From: an uncultured virus (IMG/VR IMGVR_UViG_3300005512_000014)
Lineage: Duplodnaviria > Heunggongvirae > Uroviricota > Caudoviricetes
Strand: one strand, 5' to 3'
Length of the DNA stretch: 64,000 nucleotides
IMG/VR virus record: IMGVR_UViG_3300005512_000014
Shown here: positions 31,162 to 59,470 of the stretch, piece after piece
How positions within the stretch are numbered: the stretch's first letter is position 1
How the letters are laid out: the number at the start of each line of letters is the position of its first letter
Made by a program: the position numbers and the translations under genes
The notes under the pieces: model-generated
Database searches by the model: none
Seen by the model: only the letters and a program-made list of their open reading frames with translations
Told to the model about the DNA's origin: nothing

Positions 31162-32718
31162 TTATTCAAAGAACGGGTTATCGTAAACACTAACAGTCGG
31201 CATAACATCCTGAACCGTCATAGCGCATGCAATGGCAAGAGAATCTGGATAGTCGTCAAAAGCACCACGCTCATCAGGTGCCGCTGCAAGCATATATGGG
31301 CCTCTGTTAACCTTTTCCAAGTCTGCCATTTGTTGATTGAACTTCTTCCAACGCTTTGTTCGCCGCGCCTTGCTATGACCGGGAATGATCAATTGTTCTC
31401 TCTGAATCAACTGTGTTAGGTGTGTCCATCGCTCGTTCTGCGCTTTAGCGTCGGATGAGACGGCAACGACCTCTATCTGTGGAATCAGAATCTGAAGACG
31501 TTCAGCAACCGCTCCACCAACGCCTTGAGCATCTACACCAATCCTGTACACATCATAGTTGCGAAGAAAGTCGATAATCTCAAAGTACTGAGTTTCCCAT
31601 TCGACGTTATTGATCTCGTGCCAGTTCAGAATTCGGTGCTCGTAGAAACCGAAGGCATCTGGGTGGTCCCAGTCAACCCATACCGGAGTGATGACGGTGC
31701 TGTCGTTTGTGCGGGCAACATCGATACCAACGACAATTGGTGTCTTCCACCATTCGGTAACAAGAGGCATGCTGGGGTCGTATAGACGCTCTAGACGATC
31801 CTCGGCAACAAACATACCCTTTTCCAACATCCATCGGTTGCAGTACGACATCTGAAACTCGTCAGAGTCCTCACCAATACGCAACTTCTCTTTAGCAATG
31901 AACGACGCATAGTTGGTGTTGTACCTAGCAGCAGTTCGCCAGTCGTATTCGTGATGATGCTGCTTGTGGTTACGACTGTTGATGTCACGACGCTTGTTGT
32001 ACTGAATAGCGTTGTAGAAGTATGACTTGTAGCGCTGCGCCGTACCACCAAGGACAATGCTTCCGTTGTTCCACGCAAGCATCGGTTTGATCGACTTGGC
32101 GATCATCGTCTCGTCCGCTTCCTGAGCCTCATCGATGAAGGCGAAGTGGTAGGTCTTCGATTCAATCTTGGCCTTAGGGTTACAGGTCTGCATACGGCAT
32201 AGGGAGCCAGACTTCTTCAAAGTGATGATCTTGCCCTTACCACGACCACCGCCTCCTGTGGCCTTGTCATCAATATCGGGATCAAGAAGGAACGACGTAG
32301 CGTGCTCACTTGTCAACTTAGTGACCACACGGCCAAACACTGTTTCTGCCTGTTCTTCTGTGGGGGCGAACACCCCAACCCAGAAGCCTTTCTCAAACTT
32401 CTTCAGCCACGTCGGATAGACGTTAGCGAGTCTGGGAAGGATGACCATAAGGCCAGCAATAAGGTTTGATACGACCTCTGACTTACCGCTCTGGCGAGTT
32501 GCGATTAGCGTCTTCTCTTCACCATCACCCAAAACAATCGACTCAACAAACGAGTAGGCAATGGGAATCTGATAGGGGAAGAACTCTACATCGCAGAACT
32601 CTTCGACAAACATGATGAGTTTCTTGACGAGGTCGTCTACAAACTCAGCCGTAGTCTCATCGATGTCGTCATTGACTTCTTCGACCTCGTCTGCGTATAT
32701 AGCCTCATCCGTACTCAT
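31162..32718 (-). CDS. terL: Terminase large subunit
   Basis: Walker A RQSGKS, Walker B IDEAQ, nuclease GIDVA and DDYPDS. Confidence 0.95.
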   Translation of the reverse strand: MSTDEAIYADEVEEVNDDIDETTAEFVDDLVKKLIMFVEEFCDVEFFPYQIPIAYSFVESIVLGDGEEKTLIATRQSGKSEVVSNLIAGLMVILPRLANVYPTWLKKFEKGFWVGVFAPTEEQAETVFGRVVTKLTSEHATSFLLDPDIDDKATGGGGRGKGKIITLKKSGSLCRMQTCNPKAKIESKTYHFAFIDEAQEADETMIAKSIKPMLAWNNGSIVLGGTAQRYKSYFYNAIQYNKRRDINSRNHKQHHHEYDWRTAARYNTNYASFIAKEKLRIGEDSDEFQMSYCNRWMLEKGMFVAEDRLERLYDPSMPLVTEWWKTPIVVGIDVARTNDSTVITPVWVDWDHPDAFGFYEHRILNWHEINNVEWETQYFEIIDFLRNYDVYRIGVDAQGVGGAVAERLQILIPQIEVVAVSSDAKAQNERWTHLTQLIQREQLIIPGHSKARRTKRWKKFNQQMADLEKVNRGPYMLAAAPDERGAFDDYPDSLAIACAMTVQDVMPTVSVYDNPFFE

Positions 32719-36307: not shown

Positions 36308-36440
36308 GTTTATCAGTATAGTCCCACTCATCTACTTGTGGGCCTTCAAACTTCTTTGAAGGTATAGTTTGCGCCCGTAAGCGCTGTTCCATTGCTATGC
36401 GCTTTTCGTCGTCAGACCAGCGCTTACGGGCACGTTTCAT
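36291..36440 (-). CDS. 49-aa hypothetical protein
   Basis: Read by hand: MKRARKRWSDDEKRIAMEQRLRAQTIPSKKFEGPQVDEWD...; TGATG coupling to nrdJ. Confidence 0.55.
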   Translation of the reverse strand: MKRARKRWSDDEKRIAMEQRLRAQTIPSKKFEGPQVDEWDYTDKHASNR

Positions 36441-38368
36441 CACTTGATGGGGCAAGCGCCCCCGGCACATTCACCGAAGTCAACGTCTTCGGCTACGGCA
36501 GTCTGTACTAGTGGAACATCGAAGTTGATTTTGGCAAGCATCTTGTTGTAGGTGTCTTCGTCGCACTCCTCATAGGGGGCGAGTGGGAAGTTGTGATCTG
36601 AATGCAAGAGGAACGACACGGACTTGAGGCCCTTGTCGTAGTTCTTGCTTAGCCATTCCTTGATCTCGTCCAACTCCTCCATGCGGTAGTAGACGGTGAC
36701 AGAGACGGCGTTGTCGGCCCACTCAGTCTGCATACGCTTGACCCACTCCAACTGCTCTACAGCGGTCATGTCCTTGGCGAGTACAGAACCCTCAGGTGAC
36801 TGGCATGGGAACTCCACGACATAACTGGAGCGGTCTTCACGACCATCAAGCCCAACGTCGAACTGCACTCTGTAGCCACGCTTACGACAGGCGTCTACCA
36901 ACGGGTCTGACGACCGGAAACGAACACGACGGATGTAATGCTGCGCATAGGCAGGGTGAATACCGGGAGTCACACCGGGAAGGAGGGCGAGCGTCCCCGA
37001 GGGCTGAACAGTGGTCAAGCGAACGCTGACAGGGAATCCGTGCTCTTTGGAGTACTGCTCGTCAAGGTCGCTCAGGTACTCGTATGTAGGAGATAGCCAT
37101 GACAACTGTTCTGCGCTGCACTGAAGCATGCCAGTCACGCTCTGACCGAGACGAGCGTTCTTGTTGACGATCTTTGTGGTCTTCTCGTACGGGTACTCAA
37201 GACGAGTGATCTGCTTCTGCGTCAGGTACAGCAACCGGCTGATCTCCAGCATCTGCTCCTGCGACTCAATGTTCGGAAGAAAGATGGTGGCGAGGTTGCA
37301 GGACTCGCCGTCGCCAAGAGCGATCTCAGCGCAGGGGTTGTAACCCTCAATGCTGTTGTCAGCCTTGCGCTCACCCAGACGACCATACTGACGAGCCAAC
37401 TTACGATTCAGGAGACCGTACGGCTCACCGCTACCGTCGTAACCCTTCCACAGTTCGGGAAGAATCTCATCGTACGAGTCAGCGTAGATGCTGTTGTTAG
37501 AGTTGGATCGCCATGCCGGAATGGCACCACTGCTCCAGTTCTTCGCACGCAAGAACAAGATGTCGTCAGGGTCACCGATGGCGATCTGTGCGGAGCGACG
37601 GCTTGAGCCAGATACGACAACACGACCGATGATGTTGCAGATGTCCAGCACGTCGACAGAGCGCAACTTCTTACCGATACGCCCATCCATAACCTTGCAA
37701 ATGTCTTCAATACCATCAATAAGGGCAGAGGGGCCAGAGGCGGTGCCACCAAACGTCTTCAGCGGTGCGCCGTACTCGCGAATTAGAGCAGTGCTATAAG
37801 TGAACGACTTGCCGGTCTCAAAGTACGACTTCAGCACGCTGTGCAGGAGGCGGCTCCAGCCCTTGCGGCTGTCAGGCACGATGATGTCGGCATCGTGGGT
37901 CTTCTCGTGCGTGATCTCCACGCCAGCCTTGATCTTCGGTAACTCATGAATCTTGGCACGCTCTACGGAGAAGCCAACGCCCCCGCCGAGCATCAGGTGG
38001 TCGAACAGGAACTCAAAGTCTTCGACCTTCTCAATGTTGACGAAGTAGCAGTTGTTGAGTGATGCACCGTTCAACTGCTGGACAAGAGGCGTACCCAACT
38101 GCCAGAGCGCACGACCGCTCATAGAGCAACGCAGGTGGAACATGTGGTCGAACAACTTCTCGGCCTCTTCCTGCGTGTAGGGGGCACCGATTTCAATGGC
38201 ACCGTTGATCACGCGCTGGATGGTCTCAGGCCATGTCTCGTTCTCACCGTTGTCCTTTTTGCGGCTGTAGGTACGGAGAAACACCACCTCTCCCATGCCT
38301 CCAAAGCCCCACGGAGGAGTCAGTCCGCTGTAGAGAGATACAAATTCGTCAGAGATACGGGTCATCAC
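36440..38368 (-). CDS. nrdJ: Adenosylcobalamin-dependent (class II) ribonucleotide reductase
   Basis: RTYSR, LNNC, GGGVG, RRSAQI, NPCAEI, TVQPSGT, C-terminal CAGGACPIK. Confidence 0.93.
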   Translation of the reverse strand: MMTRISDEFVSLYSGLTPPWGFGGMGEVVFLRTYSRKKDNGENETWPETIQRVINGAIEIGAPYTQEEAEKLFDHMFHLRCSMSGRALWQLGTPLVQQLNGASLNNCYFVNIEKVEDFEFLFDHLMLGGGVGFSVERAKIHELPKIKAGVEITHEKTHDADIIVPDSRKGWSRLLHSVLKSYFETGKSFTYSTALIREYGAPLKTFGGTASGPSALIDGIEDICKVMDGRIGKKLRSVDVLDICNIIGRVVVSGSSRRSAQIAIGDPDDILFLRAKNWSSGAIPAWRSNSNNSIYADSYDEILPELWKGYDGSGEPYGLLNRKLARQYGRLGERKADNSIEGYNPCAEIALGDGESCNLATIFLPNIESQEQMLEISRLLYLTQKQITRLEYPYEKTTKIVNKNARLGQSVTGMLQCSAEQLSWLSPTYEYLSDLDEQYSKEHGFPVSVRLTTVQPSGTLALLPGVTPGIHPAYAQHYIRRVRFRSSDPLVDACRKRGYRVQFDVGLDGREDRSSYVVEFPCQSPEGSVLAKDMTAVEQLEWVKRMQTEWADNAVSVTVYYRMEELDEIKEWLSKNYDKGLKSVSFLLHSDHNFPLAPYEECDEDTYNKMLAKINFDVPLVQTAVAEDVDFGECAGGACPIK

Positions 38369-40011: not shown

Positions 40012-40371
40012 TTATTCTTCCTCCCAGTCCATTACCTCTGATGGACGTAAATTTTGGGGTACATGGCCCTGTTCTTGGTAGCCACGCACGGGCACTCCTC
40101 GCCCGTCTAGGTCTTGCCAACGCCATGCGGTAGCAGGCACGTGTGTCAGGCCAGCCTGACGGGACGCCTCAAGGCGGTGATGACCCTCTGCCAGCATTGC
40201 CCTGCGATCTGTCTTACCGTAGGTAACGATGACCGGTTCCTGAACGCCCCGCTCTTTGATGTCCTTCGACAGTTCTGACACGTCATAACGCAGTTCGTTG
40301 TTACGCATGGGCAGCAACGCAGCAATGGGCACCATCTCGGTGAACTGATTGAATTGCGGTCCTAAAGCCAT
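40012..40371 (-). CDS. ParB/Srx-like single-domain protein with MALGPQF tag
   Basis: L..DIKERGVQEPV...EGHHRL.A...G...VP. Confidence 0.8.
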   Translation of the reverse strand: MALGPQFNQFTEMVPIAALLPMRNNELRYDVSELSKDIKERGVQEPVIVTYGKTDRRAMLAEGHHRLEASRQAGLTHVPATAWRWQDLDGRGVPVRGYQEQGHVPQNLRPSEVMDWEEE

Positions 40372-40466
40372 TACAACCCTCCGAGCACTCCGACGCCAAC
40401 AATGCCCCACATAGCACCGGCAATTACGAAGCAAAAACCGATAAGTGCTGTTGTGAGCCTGTACAT
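40371..40466 (-). CDS. 31-aa membrane peptide
   Basis: Read by hand: MYRLTTALIGFCFVIAGAMWGIVGVGVLGGL; TAATG coupling. Confidence 0.5.
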   Translation of the reverse strand: MYRLTTALIGFCFVIAGAMWGIVGVGVLGGL

Positions 40467-40471
40467 AACGC

Positions 40472-41083
40472 TCAGTCTACGATAAACCCAAGTCTGGGAA
40501 CCTCTAAATGGCCGTCTGCATCATCAAAATCAGGTTCATACCCTTCAATTACGTCATCTGACCACACGGGGACGATTCGATTGCAGTTCTGGGGGTCAGG
40601 AGAGGGCCTCATATGCACCTCAATCACCTTTCCACCGATAAATTCGACGTTGATTAGCCCAACATCGCTCAATTCCCGCAGGTTGAACATACGAGGTGCC
40701 GCCAATAGTGGTTTTTTCTCCCACTTACTAAAGCGAGACAGATTTTCAGCGCTGTTGAACCCCTCCCACACTGATGTAGCACGCCATTCACCCTCCCAAC
40801 GGTGACTCCACTCGTAGGCAACGCTCAAATGCGTCCCCTCTAACCACTCTGTCCAGAAGTAACCCGGCTCAACTGAGCGGATATCGCCCTCTTCGATCCA
40901 CTGCTTGCGTGCCCCGATGCCCATACCGGACAAGTTCATCACTGGGCGTACGCAATACCAGCCACTTACTGGTGGTCCAACGCCCCCCGGACCAGAAGAA
41001 ACACCAAATAGACTAGATACAAAGAGTTTATTGAAGAACTGACGATGCTGTGGGTATTTCTTCCACGCTTCAGCGTCAGTCAC
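40472..41083 (-). CDS. Hypothetical protein, ATP-grasp-like
   Basis: VRP..NL.GMG...EWLEG.HLSV...NVEFIGGKVIEVH.R. Confidence 0.55.
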   Translation of the reverse strand: MTDAEAWKKYPQHRQFFNKLFVSSLFGVSSGPGGVGPPVSGWYCVRPVMNLSGMGIGARKQWIEEGDIRSVEPGYFWTEWLEGTHLSVAYEWSHRWEGEWRATSVWEGFNSAENLSRFSKWEKKPLLAAPRMFNLRELSDVGLINVEFIGGKVIEVHMRPSPDPQNCNRIVPVWSDDVIEGYEPDFDDADGHLEVPRLGFIVD

Positions 41084-41579
41084 TCGTTCTCCTTCTACTG
41101 TCTCCCTCAAAAAACCCTGTCTTGGGATCGAATTGAACCTCGCTTATGACTCTCAATCTAGGAGCCATCCATGCGTCCATGTCTAGGTCTAGGTTGGTGT
41201 CTCGCTGCACTTGCCCGATAGGTTCAACTCGGTATAGACGCCCTCTACCCCCCCGCCCATCGTGTGCATAATCTGTGGCTACCTCTACATCCCTTGCAAA
41301 GAAGGCATTATCTTTGAAATGCGCAAACTCGCCTTCGGACGGATATTCAAACTGTGAATGAGCACCCTCACTGACTGGGATGATGTGATCACCGGGTTGT
41401 AACACTGCGGAGGTGCCGTGGTACCCCACAGACGGAGGTTCAGGCTCCCGTCGCTTGCGGTGTACGTCAGGATTGTTACCTAAAGGCCTACCCTTACTGA
41501 CCGCACCCGATTGTCGCTGAGACGCCGTACGGTAGGGAGCCGCTTTTTTATACACTCGCTTAGGTTTTGGTGCTTCCAT
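41076..41579 (-). CDS. Arr-like ADP-ribosyltransferase
   Basis: YHGT..LQPGD.I...A..YA...RLYRVEPIG...D...LRVISE parallels the Arr family layout. Confidence 0.72.
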   Translation of the reverse strand: MEAPKPKRVYKKAAPYRTASQRQSGAVSKGRPLGNNPDVHRKRREPEPPSVGYHGTSAVLQPGDHIIPVSEGAHSQFEYPSEGEFAHFKDNAFFARDVEVATDYAHDGRGGRGRLYRVEPIGQVQRDTNLDLDMDAWMAPRLRVISEVQFDPKTGFFEGDSRRRTSD

Positions 41580-42213: not shown

Positions 42214-42947
42214 CAGTCCATCCCCGGAATTTTCACAGCGTTAGGGTCATCGTCTGGGTTATAAGAAGCGCCCCCATCACGTTGGCTTTCAAACTCTTGT
42301 AGTGCTTCAAACTGGGGGGACAAAGCGCGCTGACGCTTTTCTCCACGAAGTGCTTGGTGAATGAGCCTTCTACCAGCATCTACTTCCGAACTACTGACAG
42401 GAGATACTTCTGCACCGTAATAGGTTCCTTTCGGCAACCCGTCGCGTACACGCACGGTGCGGTCATACATGGGCATACGGTTAGTTACTTCAGCATCACG
42501 GTTCGCTGGGTGCCCTTGTACAACTCCCGCATCGATACCGCGCTGAACGATACGACTGCTGTATTTTGATAGGTCGTCAGATGCCAAGGTCCCCGGCCCC
42601 CCACGTTCCAAAGCCAAACCTAACAATGTCCCAACGGTGTGCTTCATCCTCGGATCGGCAAACAGCCCCGTGATCTCTGCTGGCTTACGCATGAACATCT
42701 GGGGAGTATCGCGTTGTTGCCGCTTCGCCTCTTCCTTGACGTGCCAAGGCTCATTCTTCAGCGCTTTTTCAATCTCAAAGTCAGTATGCGATTCATCCAA
42801 CCTGTTACCGACGATTGGTCTTTCTTCTGCATCGTCCATTTCAACACGTGCAGCGGCGTAGTCGTTACCGTCTGTATTGCGAGGCTGCTCTCCTACAGCG
42901 TGGAAAACGGTTGCGCTCCCTGCCTGTTCTTTAAAGTACTTAGCCAT
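42213..42947 (-). CDS. Hypothetical protein, possible degenerate GNAT fold, internal ALSPQF
   Basis: ITGLFADP....VGTLL...LS..S..IV; RBS GGAGG. Confidence 0.45.
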   Translation of the reverse strand: MAKYFKEQAGSATVFHAVGEQPRNTDGNDYAAARVEMDDAEERPIVGNRLDESHTDFEIEKALKNEPWHVKEEAKRQQRDTPQMFMRKPAEITGLFADPRMKHTVGTLLGLALERGGPGTLASDDLSKYSSRIVQRGIDAGVVQGHPANRDAEVTNRMPMYDRTVRVRDGLPKGTYYGAEVSPVSSSEVDAGRRLIHQALRGEKRQRALSPQFEALQEFESQRDGGASYNPDDDPNAVKIPGMD

Positions 42948-43073
42948 ACGCAATACCTCCGAGGACTAAGTTACTACTTCAGTACTCAGAGGGGGCCGAA
43001 ATTGACCAGTTTGGGGGCTACGGACGGATTACTACGGCATGAGGGAACAAGCCCTCATAGAAACGGAGTAATC

Positions 43074-43292
43074 ATGAACCTAGAACGTGACGTTAAGCGG
43101 GCCGAACGTCTTCGCAAAACGATCTGCGAGGCCATTGAGGAGTTGGAATGCGCCATAGCGCCTGACAAGTGGTCAGCAGACCTTATTTACGCTCTGAAGA
43201 GGCTTGACGAGGCAGAGAACATGGCTTGGATCATGTGGTTGAGCGCACAGTTACGCTTTGAGAGGGCCGAAACTACAGGAAGTACTGAGTAA
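43074..43292 (+). CDS. Small helical hypothetical protein
   Basis: MNLERDVKRAE...; RBS GGAG. Confidence 0.55.
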   Translation: MNLERDVKRAERLRKTICEAIEELECAIAPDKWSADLIYALKRLDEAENMAWIMWLSAQLRFERAETTGSTE

Positions 43293-43719
43293 TTGCCTCG
43301 GCCTGCTCACGTTCCTGTGTGGTCATTGGCTTGGGAGGACCATGACGAGGTCCCTTCTTAGGGGGCTGAGGAATACCGCTATCGCCCCTGTACGCCATGG
43401 GTACGAAAGTCTCTTTACCGGTCGTAGCGTCGATATCAGCCTGAGCAGCGACTCGGTGGTGCTTGTCTTCCAACTCGCTACCTCTACTCGTATGTAGTGC
43501 CGTGACTGTACTCAGAATGGGTTTACCCCCTGAGAGGGCGTCGTAGACACCTGAGCCGTGGCCGGTGTCTCGTGGGGCTTTGGACTCTTCCACCTTGCGC
43601 TCCCACATCTGGTCCATGGTCTCTCCGTCATAGAGGTCGCCAGAGGTGTTGACGTACCCCTTGATCTCCTCAGGGGTCATGAACAGTTTCAGTTGGTCAA
43701 ACTGGGGTCCAAGAGTCAT
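43273..43719 (-). CDS. Degenerate ParB/Srx-like protein with MTLGPQF tag
   Basis: GVYDAL..G.PI...DKHHRVAA...VP. Confidence 0.55.
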   Translation of the reverse strand: MTLGPQFDQLKLFMTPEEIKGYVNTSGDLYDGETMDQMWERKVEESKAPRDTGHGSGVYDALSGGKPILSTVTALHTSRGSELEDKHHRVAAQADIDATTGKETFVPMAYRGDSGIPQPPKKGPRHGPPKPMTTQEREQAEAITQYFL

Positions 43720-43836
43720 GTCGCCAAATTATCAGAACGGGCCTATCAGACGGGGCCAAATTGTGTGTTGCTCAATTTTTGAGGGGGCCTATAGGGTAGT
43801 TGCTCGTTGTCTCGGTGGGTGTTGCCTACCCACGCC

Positions 43837-44185
43837 TGTGGATAAACCTGTGGATAAAGGGTGGGGGGGTGTGGATAACCTGTGGATAACTCACTTTTCC
43901 ACAGGTTCCTGTGGATAACTCGGTACTTTTCCACAGCCTGTGGATAACTTTTCCACAGACTTATCCACAACTAGCCTGTGGATAACTTTATCCACAGGGA
44001 GGCTATACATCCTGTGGATAACTCGGATTTTCTGTGGATAACCCATGCCTGAGACCCCGATTTCTGTGGATAACCCTGTGGATTTCCGTCTGCCCCCCGA
44101 AAATAGACAGGGTGGCACCACAGGGCGGGGCATCCAGAATTGCCCTGATTGCCCCCTATATGGCTGTCTGCCAGCCTGTGGATAA
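43837..44185. promoter_or_regulatory. DnaA-box cluster (oriC-like)
   Basis: 13 perfect TTATCCACA/TGTGGATAA at 43837, 43849, 43870, 43881, 43910, 43939, 43961, 43977, 43988, 44013, 44033, 44065, 44177. Three TTTTCCACA at 43895, 43927, 43949. Confidence 0.9.
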
Positions 44186-44251
44186 CTTCGACGTGGGGGT
44201 CTATGCATAGTTATTCACCCCGATGAATAGATATACAGGTAGGTACAATTA

Positions 44252-44318
44252 TCGAACGTATGTTCGGGGTAGCAAGTATCGAACATATGTTCGGTGTACT
44301 GATCGAACATATGTTCGG
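44252..44318. promoter_or_regulatory. Three tandem LexA (SOS) boxes, Gram-positive/actinobacterial type
   Basis: TCGAAC-GTAT-GTTCGG and twice TCGAAC-ATAT-GTTCGG (CGAAC at 44253, 44280, 44304). Confidence 0.82.
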
Positions 44319-45101
44319 CTATCACTCGCCTGTACGTACGTGCGCGTGCGCGTGCATATGCGCCCATACGCCCGCGTAGCGCGTGTTCCTATGCATCTCC
44401 TTGGGAAATGTCCGTACAATACATTACGATTATTACATCGAATGTTACGATTGTTACAAGGTTGGGGGCGCTGCTACCTTGGTCAATGTCCGAGTGACGG
44501 CGACGGCAACAACGGTCGCCACGGTGCGTGTTCAACGGTGCCACACTCGTGTCGTCATGGTGCCCCATGTGGGGCAGCGGTGCAGCGCAGGCCATCCTGT
44601 GGGTGCGCATCGCTCCGTGACGACTTGTACGCCCCATCGGGTCGGGTTCACCGCCGACCGTGACACGATGACGTGGAACTAGGGCAATCGTTGAATCGTT
44701 CCCCCAATTGGGGGGCGCGACACCACGACCCATCGTGGGCAGGCCGTGCCTGCCCAGTGGCGGTCAATGGTCATGTCATAGCGGGATGCGCCTGCGCGAC
44801 CGTGACCAACCGCAGTGTTCTCTGTACTCGCACAATGACCGGATGTAGCCCACGACCGGCGTGCTCTGTCGCGTCCCCATCGCGGGGGGGCGACGTTGTG
44901 AGAATCGTGAGCGTCTAGTCCCTAGCACCCGGCACCCCTACGTGGGTGCCGGAGGCACCACGACACCGAACCAGTGCATCGTGGTGATGCGCCCCTGCAA
45001 GGGGGCGCGCCCACTGCTCCCCTATGGGGGGTAGTGGGGGCATCCCCTTGCCCATCAACTGTGCCCCATGTGGGGCACACGACCGGAAACGGAGACAACC
45101 A

Positions 45102-45752
45102 ATGACCATCAAACTCAACACCGCGCCCGAACTGGCCACCGTAGTCAATGCGGTCAGGACGTGGGACGCTGACGCCAAGACTCTCAACGACCTGACCAAC
45201 CTCGTTGCCGCGGGATTCGATAACGTGCTCCGTCGCATCGTGGAGGCCGTCGAGTGTGGCCACGCCGACAAGAGTGGTCGCAAACTCGCTGCCGAGGCCA
45301 AGCGACAAGGCGTGACCCTGTTCACCAACGGCGGTAAGGCACCGTCGGACAAGTGGTTTGACCGCCACCACGCCATCGGCGTCTTCTACATCGCCGTCGA
45401 TGACCAGATCGACGCCGACAAGGCCGTCGAACTCACCGCCGGTCTTGGACACGGCGAGGGCAAGGTCACACCGGCCATGCTCCGCGACACCGTCAGTGAG
45501 GCCGTGACCGACGGCAAGGACGTGCTCCGCGCCGTGGCTGCATTGTTTGCAGCGCGCCACGACGACGACGACACCGACGACACCGACGGTGAAGGCGAGG
45601 GCGAGGGCGACGACACTAAGGCACCGACCACCGATGCCGACCTCGTCGATGCCATCGGCAACATCCTCAAGGGATGGCAGCACGACGGCACCGCCACCGC
45701 CGACGACCTGTTAGCCCTTGTGGCCAGCGTCGCCACGCCGGTCTACTCGTGA
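45102..45752 (+). CDS. Hypothetical protein, first gene of the plus-strand region, with acidic linker
   Basis: RBS GGAG, strong codon bias, DDDDTDDTDGEGEGEGDD tract. Confidence 0.8.
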   Translation: MTIKLNTAPELATVVNAVRTWDADAKTLNDLTNLVAAGFDNVLRRIVEAVECGHADKSGRKLAAEAKRQGVTLFTNGGKAPSDKWFDRHHAIGVFYIAVDDQIDADKAVELTAGLGHGEGKVTPAMLRDTVSEAVTDGKDVLRAVAALFAARHDDDDTDDTDGEGEGEGDDTKAPTTDADLVDAIGNILKGWQHDGTATADDLLALVASVATPVYS

Positions 45753-45794
45753 CTAGTGACCCTGCCCCACGTGGGGCAGGGTTCACCATCGACA

Positions 45795-45821
45795 CGACCT
45801 GAGCATGTCGTAAAACTGCTC
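45795..45821 (+). ncRNA. Putative H-type pseudoknot, copy 1
   Basis: CGAC-CT-GAGCA-T-GTCG-TAAAAC-TGCTC. Confidence 0.55.
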
Positions 45822-45912
45822 CGGCCAGTAACCGTCAGGTCGTACCTAATTTGTGGATTGACGGAGTTTGCGGAATTGTTTGTGCCGAGCACCCGCAGGC
45901 GCATATCGGTAC

Positions 45913-45940
45913 CGACCTGAGCATGTCGTAAAACTGCTCA
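45913..45940 (+). ncRNA. Putative H-type pseudoknot, copy 2
   Basis: Same 27-mer as copy 1. Confidence 0.55.
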
Positions 45941-46037
45941 CCCCCCCACGGTAGAGCCTGACAAGCATCTCCCACCTCTACCACTCCACCAACCAACCAA
46001 CCGTGCCCCACGTGGGGCACTGAGAGGAACCAACACA

Positions 46038-46448
46038 ATGAACATGCAACTCAACCCTGAGACCGGCGAGTACACACCAGTCATCCGACTGGGTCACCCC
46101 GAACTGTTCGACGCCATCACTGGCGCAGGTGCCCTAGACCACTATCCATGGTACGTGAGCCACAAGTTCATGCTCACCGCGCATGACGACGACGGCTACG
46201 GCAGCGGTAACCGATGCGTCGTCATTATGGACACCGGCGACACGACCCCAGCGGGCGCGCAGTTGCTGGCACGCAAGGTGCTGTCTCCCAACCGCTTGCG
46301 CAAGGTCGTCGTCCAGATGATTCTGGACGACCATCCTGCCGTCACATCCATCGACTGGGCTGACCCATACTGCGACGCGGACATCGACGCAAATATCGCA
46401 GACTGCATCATTCAGACCTGCATCCTTGGCACGGTGGTGTTCGGGTGA
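46038..46448 (+). CDS. Hypothetical protein
   Basis: RBS GAGG; C-terminal DA.IAD.IIQ..ILG.VVFG. Confidence 0.75.
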   Translation: MNMQLNPETGEYTPVIRLGHPELFDAITGAGALDHYPWYVSHKFMLTAHDDDGYGSGNRCVVIMDTGDTTPAGAQLLARKVLSPNRLRKVVVQMILDDHPAVTSIDWADPYCDADIDANIADCIIQTCILGTVVFG

Positions 46449-46569
46449 CATTCACCATCGTCAACGCCATCGCCCAGTTCACTTTCATCACCACCGCCGT
46501 CGTCCTGACGGCGGTGGTGTTGCGCCGTTATCCCGACTGATGCCCCACGTGGGGCAGATAGGAACAACC

Positions 46570-46836
46570 ATGACAATCAAAAACCTCATCCCCACCGCCC
46601 TCGCAAAGGGCAAAGCGTACGCCTCCAACAAGAAGTGGAGTGCAGTGCGTACAGACAACGGCAAGGTCGTCGTGTACCACTACACCACGGCCATGCTGTG
46701 GGTTCTGCCCGATGGCACCCCCGAACCCATCTCGCGGGGCTACGGCTCCATGTCCGACAAGCAAGGCGTGCGCGAAGTGCTCGCCGGTATCGGTATCGAC
46801 ATGTCCTACAACGACTTCTACAAGGAGACACGATGA
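46570..46836 (+). CDS. Hypothetical protein
   Basis: MTIKNLIPT...; starts just after a palindrome and RBS. Confidence 0.7.
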   Translation: MTIKNLIPTALAKGKAYASNKKWSAVRTDNGKVVVYHYTTAMLWVLPDGTPEPISRGYGSMSDKQGVREVLAGIGIDMSYNDFYKETR

Positions 46837-47072
46837 GCGGAGTACACCGTAATACCGTAATCCCCACCGACGCGGGCACTATCGAAGTGTCATCAGTTCG
46901 GGGCAGGGTCGGTTTGGCACACATAAATGAAACATGTGTGTTCCTGCCCCCAATACTGGCAACCCTCCACGGTTGCCAGTCAGAAGTAGTCGGCACCTAC
47001 GACGACCATGCCCGCGTGGTCGATGCCATCCGCCTACTCAACGCAATCATCGTGCCCCACGTGGGGCACTGA
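46833..47072 (+). CDS. Hypothetical protein
   Basis: ATGA coupling; RBS AAGGAG. Confidence 0.6.
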   Translation: MSGVHRNTVIPTDAGTIEVSSVRGRVGLAHINETCVFLPPILATLHGCQSEVVGTYDDHARVVDAIRLLNAIIVPHVGH

Positions 47073-47086
47073 GAGGAGACACCACA

Positions 47087-47737
47087 ATGTCATTACCTAG
47101 CAAAAAGCAGACGAGGTTCATTCAGACCCTCGTAGAAGACCGCCAGCAGGCTCTCGCCGGTGAGTACGCTCACCTGCTCCAGCACCCTGTCAACACTCTG
47201 CAAGAGGCCAGTGCTCTGATCGAAGCCCTGCTCAAGGTGGAGGTCGACCCCCGCGTGGTCGACCCTGCCGAACAGGCGCGCATCGGCGCGCTGGTGGACA
47301 ACATGCCCAACCTGTCCCCCGACGACCGTGACTTCGCCCAGTCACTGGCTACCCAGTTCAACGCAAAGGGGCGACTCAGTGACCGGCAGTGGCTCTTTGT
47401 CGACCAACTGGCCATCAAGACGGAGGCCACTTGCGACCCCCAAGAGGGGGACATCGTGTGGGCACACGGTAACTACTACATCGTGCGGTTGAGTAAGCAC
47501 GGTCGCCCCTACGCCAGCGTTCTTAGAGGGCGTAACTGGGAGTATGCACCACGCCATATGCCCCTCGTACGGAGTGGTCGGATTGTGACCGGCGACGAAC
47601 TCGCTGCATTCGCAAAGGAGTACGGTGACAGTTGGCACCGTTGTATCTTCTGCGCGCTGCCACTCAACGACGAACGGTCAGTCAGCGCAGGATACGGTGA
47701 AGTCTGCGCTGGTAATAATGGCCTACCGTGGGGCTGA
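47087..47737 (+). CDS. DUF6011-like Zn-finger protein
   Basis: C-terminal CIFC..PL.D.RS...GYG.VCA; internal LS.RQW. Confidence 0.75.
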   Translation: MSLPSKKQTRFIQTLVEDRQQALAGEYAHLLQHPVNTLQEASALIEALLKVEVDPRVVDPAEQARIGALVDNMPNLSPDDRDFAQSLATQFNAKGRLSDRQWLFVDQLAIKTEATCDPQEGDIVWAHGNYYIVRLSKHGRPYASVLRGRNWEYAPRHMPLVRSGRIVTGDELAAFAKEYGDSWHRCIFCALPLNDERSVSAGYGEVCAGNNGLPWG

Positions 47738-47769
47738 TGCCCCACGTGGGGCACTGAAAGGAGACAACC

Positions 47770-47892
47770 ATGTATGACGAGAACGGATGGTGGCGACCCA
47801 TCGACGGCTGGGAAGCACAACTCCAATACGGCATACTCGCCGTATGCCTCATCGCACTCATAGCCCTCATTACCTACCGAAAGGACACCTGA
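47770..47892 (+). CDS. 40-aa membrane peptide
   Basis: Read by hand: MYDENGWWRP...GILAVCLIALIALITYRKDT; RBS AAGGAG; TGATG coupling. Confidence 0.6.
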   Translation: MYDENGWWRPIDGWEAQLQYGILAVCLIALIALITYRKDT

Positions 47893-49352
47893 TGACGACC
47901 CTTGCCGACATGCTGAGTGGCGTAACCACGCCACCTGCCCCACGTGGGACATTCACCATCGACGCGCCTGCACCCGACCTGCAACTACCGCTGTACGACT
48001 TCCAGAGCGAGGCATTGGACTTCATTGTCCAACGCCGTCGTGCATATATCGCATACGATATGGGTCTGGGTAAGACCCCCATTGGTATCGCTACCGCATC
48101 GCGTATCGCTGCCAACGGTGGCAAGACTCTGATCGTCGTACCCTCGTCACTGCGCACCAACTGGAAGCGCGAGATCACTAAGTTCGCGCCCCACCTCACC
48201 GTTGAGGTACTGGTCGGCAAGACCCCCCACGCGCTACCCGACGTGGACGTGTACGTCATCGGTGAGGCCGTGCTGCAATACTGGCAGATGCCCCTCGTGG
48301 GGCACGTGCAAGCAGTGATCGCTGACGAGGCGCACTTCTATAAGAACAAGAACGCAAAGCGCACCAAAGCATTGCAGGCCATATCAGCCTCAGTGACCGG
48401 CGTGGTCGTGCTTATGTCTGGCACGCCTATCCCTAATGGTCGTCACGAAGAACTCGCACCCCAGATCGACGTGCTGGGTAGCGAGGCATGGGACGGAATC
48501 GGTGGCAAGGGCAAGTTCTGGAACACGTACTGCCCGCCAGACGAATCTGGCTACGGTCGCCAGTCCTGCGACAACGTGGGACTCAACAAGGCCATGACCA
48601 CATCGTTCATGCTGCGCCGACGGCGCGACGAGGTGATCGAACTGCCCAACAAGGGTCGTTCCGTCATCAGCATCGAATCCGACGCTGGCAGTGCACGCAC
48701 CTATCGGCGCATGGAGGCCGACTTCATCGCATGGCTCGCGGAGAACGACGGCAACGTGGCTGGTGCCATGCGTGCCGAAGCACTGATGAAGATGAACGCA
48801 CTGCGCAAGCAGTCCGGCACATGCAAGATCAAGGGCACCGTCGATCACGTCAAGAACATTCTGGACAACGACACGACCGGCGTGTTCATCGTCGCAGAGC
48901 ACCGCGATGTGATGACCCAGTTATACCTTGCTTTGCAGTCATATAACCCTGTATCAGTCGCCGGTGGTATGTCCGACGCTGAGAAGCAGCACGCCATCGA
49001 CTCGTTCACATCCGGTCAGTCGCGTGTTCTCATCGGTCAGATCAAGGCTGCTGGCACCGGACTGACTCTGCACGGTGGTGGACTCAACCGACGTGTCGTC
49101 GTAGCCCAACTGCCGTGGTCGCCATCTGACCTAGTGCAGGCCGAAGACAGGCTGCACCGCATCGGCCAGACCGCCGACGTGGAGGTAGAGATCGCACTGT
49201 CGCATATCGAAAACGAATGGACTATTGACGAACGTCTGTGGTCGCAGTTGGAGATCAAAGCATTCAGCAGTGCATCGACCGTTGACGGCAACGGTCAGTA
49301 TCTCATCGGAGATGACTCCATCTCAGGTGGAGTGCTGGACACGTACAGGTGA
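47892..49352 (+). CDS. SNF2/HARP-like SF2 helicase
   Basis: DMGLGKT, DEAH, SGTP, GTGLTL, QAEDRLHRIGQ. Confidence 0.92.
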   Translation: MTTLADMLSGVTTPPAPRGTFTIDAPAPDLQLPLYDFQSEALDFIVQRRRAYIAYDMGLGKTPIGIATASRIAANGGKTLIVVPSSLRTNWKREITKFAPHLTVEVLVGKTPHALPDVDVYVIGEAVLQYWQMPLVGHVQAVIADEAHFYKNKNAKRTKALQAISASVTGVVVLMSGTPIPNGRHEELAPQIDVLGSEAWDGIGGKGKFWNTYCPPDESGYGRQSCDNVGLNKAMTTSFMLRRRRDEVIELPNKGRSVISIESDAGSARTYRRMEADFIAWLAENDGNVAGAMRAEALMKMNALRKQSGTCKIKGTVDHVKNILDNDTTGVFIVAEHRDVMTQLYLALQSYNPVSVAGGMSDAEKQHAIDSFTSGQSRVLIGQIKAAGTGLTLHGGGLNRRVVVAQLPWSPSDLVQAEDRLHRIGQTADVEVEIALSHIENEWTIDERLWSQLEIKAFSSASTVDGNGQYLIGDDSISGGVLDTYR

Positions 49353-51625: not shown

Positions 51626-52948
51626 ATGAAAGCCAAAGACCTGCGCGCCGACATCCCAGTCGTCGTAACATCTGGTCCGTACGAGGGCATGACCGTCACG
51701 GTCAAGAACGCCACTGTTCAGCCCGACGGCACCCCCAACCAGCGCAAGGTGCTGGTGACCATTCCCAGCATCGGACCGAACGGTGCCGATGTCGATGAGT
51801 ACATGCTGCCACGCATGCTAGAGATTCCGCGTGACACGTTCACTCTGCGTTCACCATCGACACCGCCCACACCGGCTCCGCTGCCTGCGCCTGTTCCTGC
51901 CTACGCCAGTTCCAACGCTGAACTTACTGTCATCGAACACGGTGTCGTACAGCACGCAGTCGACATCACCGACCCGATGGACGAGTCACTGGACGAGTTC
52001 CGTCCCGACCCCAACATCGTCAACGAGTACGTTTCTCGTACACTCCCCGGTGGATTGACTGACGTGGAGTACATGCTGGCACTACGTGACCAGCGTGATA
52101 GCCGTGGGTATTCGCCCAACGTAGCACTCGTTGGTGAGACGCAATCTGGCAAGACCATGCTCGTCAGGGTGCTTGCCGTGCTCGCTGCGCAACGTGATGG
52201 GCTTCCAAAGCCCTATCCGGTCTTCACCCTCAACGGTTCTATGGGTATCACCGACTATGAAATGTTCGGTCAGACCTCTGCCGTCATCGAAAACGGTCGT
52301 GAGATGCTCGTCTGGATGGACGGCCTCGTACCTCGCGCACTGAAGTGCGCTGCGATTCTGTACTGTGACGAGTGGAATGCAGTACCGCCCCAGCAAGCGG
52401 TCGCTCTACACCCCATCCTTGACGACCGGCGTGAGTTCACCAACTACCGCCGTGCCGTTCCCGATGGTCACGGTGGGTACCGCCCCGAAGTTGTGCCGGT
52501 GAACCCCAACACGTGGATTATCAGCACCATCAATCCCGGTTACAAGGGGACACAAACCATGGCCGAAGCCAGCACCAACAGGTTCCGCTGGATGCCTTGG
52601 GATTACGATGCCAAGGTGGAGGCTGCTCTCATCCCATCTGAGACCGTGCGCCTCATGGGTCAGGCTCTACGCACCGCTCGCGCAGAGCGCGCCTTGACCG
52701 TGCCCATCGGTACCTCTGCACTTCAGCGGTTCAATGCCGACTGTGCGACCTTTGGTGTCGACAACGCTCTGTGGGTATTCACCGGAATGTTTCCACCCAA
52801 CGAGCGCGACCGTGCCAACACCATCATCGAAGACCGTGGGTTCCTCAACATCTTGCGTGCTGAGTACCCCAACCCAACCTATGCCCCACGTGGGGCAGAC
52901 GACACCGTCAATGATTCAGCAGATCGTTCGTCGGACGCCCCATTCTGA
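51626..52948 (+). CDS. MoxR/CbbQ/CobS-like AAA+ ATPase
   Basis: GETQSGKT, YCDEWN, TINPGY.G...A..NRF. Confidence 0.88.
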   Translation: MKAKDLRADIPVVVTSGPYEGMTVTVKNATVQPDGTPNQRKVLVTIPSIGPNGADVDEYMLPRMLEIPRDTFTLRSPSTPPTPAPLPAPVPAYASSNAELTVIEHGVVQHAVDITDPMDESLDEFRPDPNIVNEYVSRTLPGGLTDVEYMLALRDQRDSRGYSPNVALVGETQSGKTMLVRVLAVLAAQRDGLPKPYPVFTLNGSMGITDYEMFGQTSAVIENGREMLVWMDGLVPRALKCAAILYCDEWNAVPPQQAVALHPILDDRREFTNYRRAVPDGHGGYRPEVVPVNPNTWIISTINPGYKGTQTMAEASTNRFRWMPWDYDAKVEAALIPSETVRLMGQALRTARAERALTVPIGTSALQRFNADCATFGVDNALWVFTGMFPPNERDRANTIIEDRGFLNILRAEYPNPTYAPRGADDTVNDSADRSSDAPF

Positions 52949-52962
52949 TAAGGAGGAATATC

Positions 52963-55038
52963 ATGGCAAAGAAAAAGACAGTACCAAAGCATCTCAAACC
53001 ACAGCGTGGTCTGGGTCAAGAGATTACGAGGGCACGACGTAGCCAGCGTGACATCTTGCGTAAGCGCGAAGAGAACGACCGGATGACGGCAGCAACCAAC
53101 GCACGAGCAGAGATTGAGCGTCTGCGCTCTGCGAACTGTGTCGTTGACCAGTTTTACAAGTGGGCTAACAGCCTCGTCGGTGCAACCGTCGACAGCCAGA
53201 CCGCTGTACTGCGTTCAATGGGTATGAAGCAGGAGGTCTCCTACGAGGTAGGTGTATGGAGTAGTAGCCGTGTAACCGCATGGACGGACTTCTCACGCAT
53301 CTTTCTGTCGTACCCTCGCAACATGGTACCGTCACGCGACTCTCATCGCAGTGCCATCGTTGACACAATCATCGACATACGTGGCCTCATGCAGCATGAG
53401 ATGGGTCACCTGCGCTTCACGGTGCCGTTCAAGACATTGGTTGATCACGACGCTGAGAGCAGCCAGCCTCGCATCCCCGGCATGTACTTGTTTGGAACCG
53501 TCAAGAACGTATGGAACATGCTGGAAGACCAGCGCATGGAAACACTGGTCGTCAGGGATGTGCCCCACATTCGCGATTACTTCACCAAGATGATCTACCG
53601 ACACATCATCAATACGCAGCACAGCACCAACCCATACTGGCCGTGGCTGCTTGTCGCAGGACGCCAGTATCTGCCACGTGATATGCGCCAGTCATGTCGT
53701 GACATGTTCTCTGACGCACTGCCCCACATCGACAGCCAAGAGTGGTTCGACATCGTCGCGAGGTACAAGACCGCTACAACCTACGACACGATGATCGATG
53801 CCATTCTTGAGGCTACTGCTTGGTACAGTCAGATAAATAATGATTCATTTGAGCACCCAACTGAGCATCGTGACCCCCCTACCAACTACGGCGGTCAGAA
53901 GCAGGAGAGCGACGAGAGTGCCGGGGGCGACCCTTCCGATGCTTGCGAGCCTGAGCAGGACGACACCAAGGGGCGTAATCCTAGTAGCGACGACACTGGC
54001 GACGACACTGACAGTGGTACCGGTGACGACATTGGCGACGACACTGGCAGTGGTAACGGTGACGAGCAGAGCGACGACACCGACGATTCCACTGGCGGTG
54101 ATGGTTCTGGTCAGGCAGATGGCAAGTCGCCGGATGACAGCCCAGACAGCGGTGGCAAAAGTGCTGGCGAAGGCGACGGCACCACTACGAATCGTCGTGA
54201 CTTTACTGAAAGTCTGCGTGATGCCGTCAATGACATCAACGACGACCTTGGCAGCAGTCACGAGATCACAGAAACCATCTCCGACGCCAACTGGCGTGCT
54301 GACAGGGAGGGTCTCCCCAGCAAGAACGGTAGTGGTAGCCCGATGCAACTGGACTACGTCGATGAGGCCCTACGTGCCAGCATTGGTATCCAACAAGCAT
54401 TGACTGAGTGCGTGACCACTACGCAACCGGCATGGTTGTCACATCAAGATTCGGGTGCCATTGATGCCCTTTCATACCGTACGAAGCAGGTAGGTGCTCT
54501 TGATTATCACCGCCGTTTGGACGGCGACTTCACATCAGGTCTGGACATTCACGTGTCCATGCTGTGCGACGTGTCGGGTTCCATGGGTTCTAGTTCTACC
54601 GACAGTGGCCGTACCGACATCGAAGAATTGAGTATCGCTATGTACGCCATTCACGATGCCTGCAATGCTCTGGGTATCGGTTCCACGTACGTGCTGTGGT
54701 CTAGCAACGCCAATGCCCATCGTGTGTGGGATTGTGGTTCAGTCGAACCTATGACGTGGTCTGCATCGGGGGGTACTAACCCAGTCATGGCTCTTGACGA
54801 CTTGACCTTCCACAACGAGGAGGGCGCGAGTAAGCACCTCGTCATAGTGTTCACTGACGGTGTGTGGAACAACAACATACCGTCCCTCAGTCGGTGGAGC
54901 ACAGACGACCGTCACATCATTCTCGTTACCCTTGGTTCTTCCCTAAACCAAGACAGGGGTGCCGATGCCAGCGTCGTCGTCAAATCATGCAACGAACTGC
55001 CTAACCAACTGGCTATTGCACTCAAGAGCCTCATCTGA
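52963..55038 (+). CDS. CobT-like protein: HExxH domain, acidic linker, vWA domain
   Basis: HEMGH...N.LED.R.E; D/G-rich linker; MIDAS DVSGSM...GGT...TDG. Confidence 0.85.
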   Translation: MAKKKTVPKHLKPQRGLGQEITRARRSQRDILRKREENDRMTAATNARAEIERLRSANCVVDQFYKWANSLVGATVDSQTAVLRSMGMKQEVSYEVGVWSSSRVTAWTDFSRIFLSYPRNMVPSRDSHRSAIVDTIIDIRGLMQHEMGHLRFTVPFKTLVDHDAESSQPRIPGMYLFGTVKNVWNMLEDQRMETLVVRDVPHIRDYFTKMIYRHIINTQHSTNPYWPWLLVAGRQYLPRDMRQSCRDMFSDALPHIDSQEWFDIVARYKTATTYDTMIDAILEATAWYSQINNDSFEHPTEHRDPPTNYGGQKQESDESAGGDPSDACEPEQDDTKGRNPSSDDTGDDTDSGTGDDIGDDTGSGNGDEQSDDTDDSTGGDGSGQADGKSPDDSPDSGGKSAGEGDGTTTNRRDFTESLRDAVNDINDDLGSSHEITETISDANWRADREGLPSKNGSGSPMQLDYVDEALRASIGIQQALTECVTTTQPAWLSHQDSGAIDALSYRTKQVGALDYHRRLDGDFTSGLDIHVSMLCDVSGSMGSSSTDSGRTDIEELSIAMYAIHDACNALGIGSTYVLWSSNANAHRVWDCGSVEPMTWSASGGTNPVMALDDLTFHNEEGASKHLVIVFTDGVWNNNIPSLSRWSTDDRHIILVTLGSSLNQDRGADASVVVKSCNELPNQLAIALKSLI

Positions 55039-56107: not shown

Positions 56108-56560
56108 ATGCAAACATTCGCCCCCGAAGGTCGACTTATCGACCATGGCTTCCGAGCACTGGACTACCAACGCTTAGGCAAGCAACGTGTTGAGACGTGG
56201 CAGATTCTCAACGTCCTGCGTGGCGTAGACAACGAAGGCAACCCCAAAGACCACAAAGGCTGGGTGCATCACCCTGCCACTCTTATGTGGGAAGGGCATA
56301 TCGCAGCACTTGCTCTCTACGGTATGCGCTGCTGCGAGGAGTGGATCGGACGTGGCTACAACGACACGATGCTTCCCCGATTCACTAACGTATTCAAGTC
56401 ATTCGTATGGTATGGAGACGACCCCTCCATGCCTCTGTTCTTGGACGACATTGCTGACTCGCATAAGTCCAACCTCATTCGCAAAAACCCAGCGTTCTAC
56501 CAACCGCTGTGGCCTCACATGACCGACGACCTGCCATACGTATGGCCGGTTACAGCGTAA
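56108..56560 (+). CDS. Pyrimidine-dimer DNA glycosylase-like protein (MSMEG_6728/DenV family)
   Basis: MQTF.P...LD..RLGKQRVE..QIL...GW..HPA..MW...SH.SNLIRK.P..Y...LPYVWP. Confidence 0.88.
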   Translation: MQTFAPEGRLIDHGFRALDYQRLGKQRVETWQILNVLRGVDNEGNPKDHKGWVHHPATLMWEGHIAALALYGMRCCEEWIGRGYNDTMLPRFTNVFKSFVWYGDDPSMPLFLDDIADSHKSNLIRKNPAFYQPLWPHMTDDLPYVWPVTA

Positions 56561-58827: not shown

Positions 58828-59175
58828 TCAAGCACGCTTGCGACGTTTTAGATGCTTTCGCATGGCGTCTCTTGTGCCTCGTAAGTCTAGTCGACCGTTG
58901 GGGTCAGTGCGTGGAAGGTGCTGGATCGCGTAAGGTTCGATGCGAGACTTGTTCCACTCCATACGTCCTGTACGGCGTTCTTTGGGGGTCGTACCGCCCC
59001 ATAGACCGAACTCTTCGTCCTTGCCCAACTCTGCGCACGCCTGCTGCATCGGGCAGTGCTCGCACACAAACTTACCCAACCAGTAGTACGACGACTCGGG
59101 ACCCTGCCTGTCCTCCTTATCGATAGGAGGATAGAACATCTCCAAGTGGAGACCTTTACATAGTGGGTCAGTCAC
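58828..59175 (-). CDS. whiB: WhiB-family transcription factor
   Basis: LC...FYP...VCEHCP...AC...GLWGGTTP.ER; start placed at GTG 59175. Confidence 0.88.
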   Translation of the reverse strand: MTDPLCKGLHLEMFYPPIDKEDRQGPESSYYWLGKFVCEHCPMQQACAELGKDEEFGLWGGTTPKERRTGRMEWNKSRIEPYAIQHLPRTDPNGRLDLRGTRDAMRKHLKRRKRA

Positions 59176-59470
59176 GACGCATGGCGCGATCAACGCAGTC
59201 CCACCCACACGCTGCGTAGCCAGCGAGGTCGACCCAGTTGTCGCGGTGCTCAGGAGACCAAGCGATACGGCTCAGTTTCAGCATTGACATAAGTGCTGCC
59301 ACATCGTGAGGCAGCAGGTAACTACGGTTCTCGTATACCGACTTCAGGTAGATGTCCCACATCTTGGCTGTCTTACGAAAGTCATCAATGGGGTCACCGT
59401 AATCGACGTTACGGTCACCGTTGACAAGGTTGTCAGCCTCTTGCAGAACTTCGGTACGGTTATTGTCCAT
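59168..59470 (-). CDS. DUF6378-like protein
   Basis: GDRN.DYG.P..F...W...DVA.LM..LKLSR...D.WVDLAGYAAC. Confidence 0.85.
   Translation of the reverse strand: MDNNRTEVLQEADNLVNGDRNVDYGDPIDDFRKTAKMWDIYLKSVYENRSYLLPHDVAALMSMLKLSRIAWSPEHRDNWVDLAGYAACGWDCVDRAMRRD

Follow-up and report, generated by a model that had tools for sequence, protein, structure and literature searches.

DnaA is the initiator of chromosome replication in bacteria and also a transcription factor. Described here is a dense array of its binding sites (DnaA boxes) in an uncultured virus of the Caudoviricetes (IMG/VR record IMGVR_UViG_3300005512_000014), of which a stretch of 64,000 nucleotides, referred to as the window, was analyzed. 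An initial annotation had reported 13 perfect and at least three one-mismatch boxes in 350 bp, including head-to-head pairs, exactly where gene orientation flips, and had proposed that they serve either as a phage origin driven by host DnaA or as a sponge for that protein. Its count proved exact. Thirteen exact copies of TTATCCACA were present in the window, 11 on the minus and two on the plus strand, and every one of them lay within positions 43837-44185; shuffled versions of the window had an expectation of 0.41 copies and a maximum of three, and none of 100 shuffles yielded 13. With up to one mismatch allowed, the window held 29 matches to TTATCCACA, 16 of them in the array, the additional three all reading TTTTCCACA (43895, 43927 and 43949, plus strand); with up to two mismatches, 17 of the 35 window matches fell in 43836-44186, the 17th site being AAATCCACA, with two mismatches, at 44077-44085. 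Twelve perfect boxes, the three TTTTCCACA sites and AAATCCACA make up a core array on both strands (43837-44085), and the thirteenth perfect box stands isolated on the minus strand, 92 bp to the right of this core (44177-44185). Successive perfect boxes are spaced, start to start, by 12, 21, 11, 29, 29, 22, 16, 11, 25, 20, 32 and 112 bp. Close pairs are separated by 3 bp (43837/43849) or 2 bp (43870/43881 and 43977/43988), and both back-to-back and facing pairs occur, as in TGTGGATAA-CT-TTATCCACA at 43977-43996, which bears out the head-to-head arrangement.

Perfect boxes with eight flanking bases were aligned from seven phage arrays, namely those of the window, of records G012, G006, G008, G020 and G021, and of Klebsiella phage vB_KpnP_ZK1 (ZK1). 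Their consensus was (a)gTTATCCACAGg, with (A)GTTATCCACAGG as the unit, and information content dropped to about zero past two to three flanking positions. Information being confined to (A)GTTATCCACAGG, selection acts on the DnaA box itself rather than on some longer iteron of the phage's own. The full 11-mer GTTATCCACAG accounts for eight of the 13 perfect boxes of the window, and the strongest E. coli boxes, R1 and R4, carry the same flanks as (a)gTTATCCACAGg. Judged by their sequence, the sites of the array are canonical, extended, high-affinity DnaA boxes, as initially annotated. Their density and helical spacing match those of bacterial origins. In a comparison set of 80 bacterial loci holding three close boxes, six reached 13-15 perfect boxes in 350 bp, and all six loci whose flanks were scanned (five of the richest six and one with 12 boxes) adjoined dnaA or dnaN. 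Boxes of the same orientation are spaced by 11-12, 20-23 and 29-32 bp in the array, in line with true oriC regions, whose spacings peak at 11-12, 20-22 and 32 bp as do those of the phage family. The array is thus of origin grade in box number, perfection and helical phasing.

The array lies in a non-coding hub that begins at 43720 and reaches at least 44382, perhaps 45023, the overlapping open reading frames (ORFs) within it being devoid of codon-position signal. The genes between 1.1 kb and 43719 point leftward, those from the hub to ~57.4 kb rightward, and those beyond leftward again. With the last leftward gene starting at 43719 and the first rightward gene of clear coding character spanning 45024-45752, the array does sit at the flip in orientation. 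The former (43273-43719, minus strand; called from its ORF and G+C content at third codon positions, GC3) heads the leftward block and encodes a 148-residue protein with no Pfam or PHROG family and no usable Atlas match; the latter (plus strand, GC3 0.79) encodes an acidic, familyless protein of 242 residues for which a pattern search returned no IMG/VR relative. Two rightward candidates, 44383-44682 and 44673-44918 (plus strand), show less coding signal than 45024-45752. None of 35 neighboring ORFs scanned against PHROGs and Pfam was an initiator, Rep or DnaA-like gene, nor were dnaA or dnaN among them, in agreement with the initial statement that no initiator gene is recognizable nearby.

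Between the 148-residue gene and the array, the left part of the hub (43720-43836), which is the leader and promoter space of that gene, carries two GGGCCTAT motifs (43739-43746 and 43785-43792) at a spacing of 46 bp. A third copy of this hub motif, GGGTCTAT, lies to the right of the array (44197-44204, plus strand), and three of the five window copies of GGGYCTAT fall in the hub. Further right are three boxes of the LexA (Cheo/SOS) type, CGAACGTATGTTCG, CGAACATATGTTCG and CGAACATATGTTCG, starting at 44253, 44280 and 44304 (44253-44317) in repeat units of 26 nt. They are the only exact occurrences in the window of CGAAC-N4-GTTCG, which we take to be the consensus of the SOS boxes bound by LexA in Gram-positive bacteria and actinobacteria, and the first of them begins 68 bp to the right of the last DnaA box. 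TACAAT at 44244-44249 (plus strand), 3 bp before this first LexA-type box, was picked out by eye as a candidate -10 element of a rightward promoter. The least stable 100-mer near the array (44200-44299; 62% A+T, z = 2.5, top 0.36% of the window) overlaps this region, and two 40-mers that belong to the 15 least stable in the window (44222-44261 and 44419-44458) lie 37-275 bp to the right of the last box. A perfect alternating purine-pyrimidine tract of 32 bp (44332-44363), G+C-rich, prone to Z-DNA and the most stable stretch of the hub, separates the LexA-type boxes from two A+T-rich, 15-nt direct repeats, ATTACGATTATTACA and GTTACGATTGTTACA, set 21 bp apart (44423-44458, plus strand; rank 6 among the least stable 40-mers of the window), which could be an operator or iterons. 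No CRP-type site was found in the hub, the sole window match at one mismatch or fewer being at 305-320, and no RNA family came close to its gathering score between 43300 and 45300.

The major head protein of the phage shares 60% identity with its counterparts in Streptomyces phage BRock and in relatives of BRock, and the window is therefore assigned to an uncultured BRock-like myovirus of an actinobacterium; a WhiB-like regulator (58828-59208; PHROGs/Pfam) and the type of the LexA boxes likewise point to an actinobacterial host. More than 600 capsid relatives were found in IMG/VR, with identities of up to 97%. BLASTN of 43000-46000 against cultured phages gave no match. No tyrosine integrase was present in any of five complete relatives, and to judge from this class of integrase the family looks lytic. 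Perfect boxes were sought in 30 records, 28 of them capsid relatives and two contigs found via a 24-mer of the array, and nine relatives at least 90% complete were compared at the junction, gene starts at the arrays being called with ribosome-binding sites and GC3. Junction box counts in these nine were 0, 0, 0, 0, 2, 2, 5, 7-8 and 11. Arrays were thus present in three of the nine (G012, 11 boxes; G006, 7-8; G008, 5), G015 and G011 had one box pair each, G010, G014 and G016 had no junction box, and G019 had just two boxes, 1.5 kb apart. In the window, G012, G006, G008, G015 and G011, the boxes fall precisely in the interval that separates the leftward from the rightward genes. In the hub of G014, which has no boxes, no gap at the strand switch exceeds 250 bp; the array thus amounts to an enlargement of the hub. 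In a more distant group of contigs (L242, L247-L249), the left-hand gene shares 48% identity with the 148-residue gene and lies ~2.2 kb from a DnaA-box cluster (L242/L247). This group carries about five DnaA boxes, which alternate with GAACATATGTTC (LexA-like) and TGTGAC..GTCACA (CRP-like) palindromes (L247 500-900; also L248, L249 and L242), and two facing DnaA boxes bracket one LexA-like site. L247, L248 and L249 differ at too few box positions to count for selection.

The genome of BRock, which has a 221-bp direct terminal repeat, opens with a rightward block (gp1, gp2 and onward), after which comes a single long leftward block. The gp2 homolog (46934-47737 in the window), DpdA, terminase and structural genes follow the same circular order in BRock and in the window, and the ends of BRock thus fall at the junction equivalent to the array site. 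Consistent with this correspondence, best matches to a palindrome, GAATAGGGCTATTC, occur in pairs 43-46 bp apart in the hubs of G012 (12913/12956), G008 (26517/26560) and G010 (89488/89532); G015 also has a pair, G006 a single copy (88938), and the BRock pair (118/164) sits inside the 221-bp terminal repeat. The GGGCCTAT pair at 43739/43785, beside the array, appears to be the window counterpart of these pairs, which are candidate sites for terminase or an early regulator. The third hub-motif copy is followed by GATGAATAGATATACAGG, which by eye, with no statistics attached, resembles the end of the BRock terminal repeat, TGATGAATAGGGGGATATCCAGG. BRock itself has only four scattered TTRTCCACA sites. 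Overlaps between the contig ends of G012 (249 bp) and G006 (197 bp) were rejected as true terminal repeats, as they lie at different, non-homologous places.

Similar arrays were found in unrelated phages. An IMG/VR scan for two boxes 2-3 bp apart returned at least 121 loci, and the 80 examined hold 2-7 perfect boxes. G021, one of the contigs found via the 24-mer, is a phage of a different type with eight boxes upstream of its portal gene. The cultured, T7-type podovirus ZK1 has six perfect GTTATCCACAGG boxes in each of its 292-bp terminal repeats (L377, L379; 1-292 and 45548-45839), four of the six in 21-bp tandem units. Lactococcus phage 949 has seven perfect boxes (L378 2007-2381, record ~19140-19514) in a 1-kb stretch that lacks annotation, between ORF40 and ORF41 and close to a strand switch, and a gap of 1.5 kb in Streptomyces phage Faust contains three. 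Among the top matches of a full-text literature search, whose coverage excludes subscription journals, no description of DnaA-box arrays in actinophages or in Autographiviridae termini was found, nor a paper pairing phage 949 with DnaA; T5 alone came up. As reported by Davison, T5-like phages have ~8 DnaA boxes in the untranslated left terminal repeat, framed by inverted repeats with a 52-bp spacer, and the T5 origins lie near the genome center, distant from the terminal boxes (10.1101/866236). A role for these boxes, such as a stop of DNA entry in two-step injection, has been put forward as a hypothesis (10.1101/866236; PMC13250531). Neither this precedent nor the LexA-type boxes nor the homology to the BRock terminal repeat had been noted in the initial annotation.

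The array shares several features with the injection-stop (iss) region of T5. Both phages are lytic, with a replisome of their own (in the present case as judged from relatives) and replication genes away from the boxes; in both, a cluster of consensus DnaA boxes, with close pairs 2-3 bp apart, occupies a large untranslated region at or near the terminal repeat and the early genes, the terminal position being putative here, from synteny and short motifs shared with the BRock repeat; and in both the boxes are not at a known or likely origin and their role is hypothetical. In contrast, the window phage has 16-17 boxes against ~8 in T5, most of its boxes are perfect whereas about half of those of T5 are variants, LexA-type boxes stand beside its array, and its host is an actinobacterium.

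It is highly probable that the boxes are read by the DnaA of the host. This protein is the most likely reader because only the box is conserved between the arrays and because relatives lack a DnaA DNA-binding domain, no gene for DnaA domain IV having been found in any of the five complete relatives. What the bound protein would do is less clear-cut. Our preference, a tentative one, is for a DnaA dock that would act in cis within an early-control or terminal hub without being an origin. In this mechanism host DnaA, and not a phage protein, would bind and oligomerize on the ~16 sites, and the resulting nucleoprotein would gate the early divergent promoters together with LexA, hold the genome end, or both. 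Gating by DnaA and LexA would let the phage sense the replication and damage state of its host, and rising numbers of phage genomes would necessarily also pull DnaA away from the host, either as a by-product or as a second benefit. Action in cis is favored because the boxes are always in the hub, because this hub is common to sites for other host regulators, because the same device is found at the ends of phages with origins elsewhere, and because the marks of an origin are missing. There is a precedent for the pairing of regulators in E. coli uvrB, whose promoter region is described as being under dual control by DnaA and LexA (PMC6015884). In uvrB as in the window, DnaA boxes are found next to several LexA boxes, and the rightward block of the window has a DenV-type glycosylase.

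Several observations weigh against a cis-acting dock. Some 16 boxes far exceed what a promoter switch needs, and the range of 0-16 boxes among relatives fits selection on dosage, as expected of a sponge, at least equally well. The homology to a terminal repeat is based on short motifs and on gene order shared with a phage at 60% capsid identity, and a repeat of the size found in BRock (221 bp) would overlap the 148-residue gene. Scanning for promoter consensus sequences gave weak matches only, one of which, a leftward TTGCTA-16-GATAAT (44275 to 44248), overlaps the first LexA-type box. Finally, the window encodes a DpdA-like transglycosylase of the queuine tRNA-ribosyltransferase family (59482-60915, minus strand), homologous to BRock gp36; the phage may swap guanines for 7-deazaguanine, a change that could alter binding of DnaA and LexA.

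The second function put forward in the initial annotation, a DnaA sponge, would have no role in cis: the array multiplied by the number of phage copies would drain free DnaA, stop initiation in the host and free host genes repressed by DnaA. The B. subtilis DnaA-box clusters are non-origin titration sites, and multicopy datA or mioC plasmids drain DnaA in E. coli. Plasmids carrying DnaA boxes or datA are reported to titrate DnaA and surplus datA to delay initiation (PMC5835720), which indicates that multicopy DnaA-box DNA can act in this way. Like datA and the B. subtilis clusters, the array is a group of high-affinity boxes outside an origin that could hold many DnaA molecules; datA differs in being chromosomal and in having, besides two consensus and four one-misfit boxes, an IHF site needed for hydrolysis of DnaA-ATP (PMC5835720), whereas the array is carried by a multicopy lytic phage. 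A sponge would also accord with the close packing of boxes of the highest affinity class, with the variation from 0 to 16 boxes at a single locus across relatives, as selection on dosage predicts, with the emergence of arrays in unrelated phages and with the lack of an unwinding module. Box density and perfection, in contrast, are uninformative: the argument that the array is denser and more perfect than any oriC, and hence a sponge, was ruled out by loci at dnaA/dnaN, where origins reach 15 perfect boxes in 350 bp. A sponge would need no fixed location, yet the boxes are always in the hub, and four of the nine relatives do without them. T5, moreover, degrades host DNA early in infection, and T5-like phages keep their boxes even though a block of initiation adds little if host DNA is degraded early. 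Titration as the selected function of the array is regarded as unlikely.

We consider it equally unlikely that the array is an origin dependent on, or assisted by, DnaA, in which DnaA would open the A+T-rich DNA at 44200-44260 or 44420-44458 and a DnaB-type helicase of the phage would be loaded with the help of divergent transcription. The array equals real origins in box number, perfection and phasing (11-12, 21-22 and 32 bp), two very unstable 40-mers lie to the right of its last box, and the further repeats of the hub could be iterons. The relatives encode exonuclease, polymerase, helicase, primase and DnaB, as well as a DnaC-like loader in G012, and no initiator is known from them, although they were not scanned for one and their replication genes were located solely by homology to five annotated BRock replication genes. 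The primase and polymerase for which the initial annotation had proposed a search are thus present in the family, but like the rest of the replication genes they lie 30-40 kb from the array, and the window ends before this module. As a control, the oriC of a Rubrobacter sp. metagenome-assembled genome (L312 560-960, in the dnaA-dnaN gap) was read alongside. It has the same box sequence, perfection and helical spacing as the array and a similar number of boxes in 350 bp (14 perfect TTATCCACA against 13), followed by GGCC-(TTA)5 and A+T-rich DNA. Richardson reportedly described in 2016 a basal unwinding system made up of DnaA boxes, DnaA-trios and an A+T-rich element. The Rubrobacter control shows this order as box-box-GGCC-(TTA)5, whereas no DnaA-trio run or GC cluster was found beside any box of the array by reading of the sequence; the array also differs in lacking a dnaA or dnaN flank and two opposed blocks of boxes converging on an unwinding element, and in being optional among relatives.

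Further observations speak against an origin. Four of the nine relatives are boxless at the junction and two have only two boxes. The last box, which is the nearest to the A+T-rich stretch, points away from it, and the unstable DNA beside the array, which ranks in the top 0.36% of the window, is not conserved, its counterparts ranking at 11% in G012, 3.3% in G006 and 14% in G008. Cumulative GC skew, a check suggested in the initial annotation and run here on the window and three complete relatives, had no extreme at the array. Rep-dependent origins with auxiliary DnaA boxes, such as those of P1 (oriR), pSC101 and RK2, resemble the hub in that DnaA boxes lie on a mobile replicon near repeats and A+T-rich DNA, but no rep gene adjoins the hub in the PHROGs and Pfam scan, the boxes are far more numerous and the replicon is a lytic phage. 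The optional array, the distant replication genes, the flat GC skew, the lack of DnaA-trios and the unconserved melting DNA together weaken the proposal that host DnaA drives phage replication from this site, and the array is most likely neither a captured oriC nor the main origin of the phage.

That an unrecognized phage protein reads the boxes, their match to DnaA boxes being coincidence or mimicry, appears very unlikely. Most genes adjacent to the hub are familyless, which leaves room for such a protein; however, a single unit of 12-13 bp is all that is kept in seven arrays from unrelated phages that infect hosts from actinobacteria to Klebsiella, and DnaA domain IV is absent from all five complete relatives. 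An all-against-all BLASTP of the ORFs around six arrays revealed no shared neighbor protein, which rules out a conserved adjacent gene as the reader. An assembly chimera, in which a piece of host oriC would have been fused to phage DNA and which the initial annotation had raised as an objection, has a negligible probability despite a box density equal to that of real origins: an independent metagenome contig of 2,929 bp (L243), the sole near-identical DNA to be found, matches 42931-45859 at 99.97% identity, with one mismatch, and spans the array and both flanking genes, so that the array and its flanks, being reproduced, are not chimeric, and both flanks are phage genes, syntenic in relatives whose arrays lie at the same junction, with no dnaA or dnaN beside them.

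The PHROGs and Pfam scans took in 70 ORFs of the window. Tail sheath, tube, baseplate, tail fibers, major head protein and portal were recognized between 1.1 and 27.7 kb, followed by the large terminase (31162-32718), a class II ribonucleotide reductase (36440-38368) and a protein with a ParB-N domain (40012-40434). A 167-residue protein with a rifampin ADP-ribosyltransferase domain (Arr-ms; 41076-41579, minus strand), unusual for a phage, matched at an E value of 1.4e-6, slightly above the cut-off. The rightward block, which is headed by the LexA-type boxes, includes an SNF2-type helicase (47787-49352), for which an IMG/VR search returned one distant relative, and a DenV-type pyrimidine-dimer glycosylase (56108-56560), and may be a damage-inducible phage operon. 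Within it an AAA_5 (MoxR-like) ATPase (51626-52948, plus strand) is followed by a familyless protein of 691 residues, and the pair (51626-55038, plus strand) is kept in G012, G006 and G008. The start of the rightward block (44000-49000) has 59-61% G+C and a GC3 of 0.70-0.79 against ~52% G+C elsewhere in the phage, and GC3 is 0.77-0.88 in the first rightward genes of G006 and G008.

Returning to a cis-acting DnaA dock, it is possible, if rather doubtful, that DnaA-box arrays in terminal or early-control regions are a general and convergent device among lytic phages whose genomes carry terminal repeats, such as T5-like phages, Klebsiella Molineuxvirinae and BRock-like actinophages, the host initiator serving as a growth-state-dependent clamp on the first-entering DNA that would either control early transcription or keep the genome end in place and protected, with LexA as an addition in the present phage. 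If so, the window phage would sense host replication and host damage through two inputs. So far, the use of DnaA by lytic phages has been described as a hypothesis for T5 only. The present analysis shows that unrelated lytic phages infecting actinobacteria, enterobacteria and lactococci have the extended box (A)GTTATCCACAGG built into their non-coding hub or terminal region, that box number varies from 0 to 16 within one phage family, and that features of a true origin are missing. The retention of DnaA boxes by T5-like phages thereby becomes testable in existing cultured systems. Arrays that gate early transcription or genome entry would represent a new class of phage-host interface, and arrays that titrate DnaA would amount to a host shutdown effected by DNA only; either outcome would alter the annotation of non-coding phage DNA.

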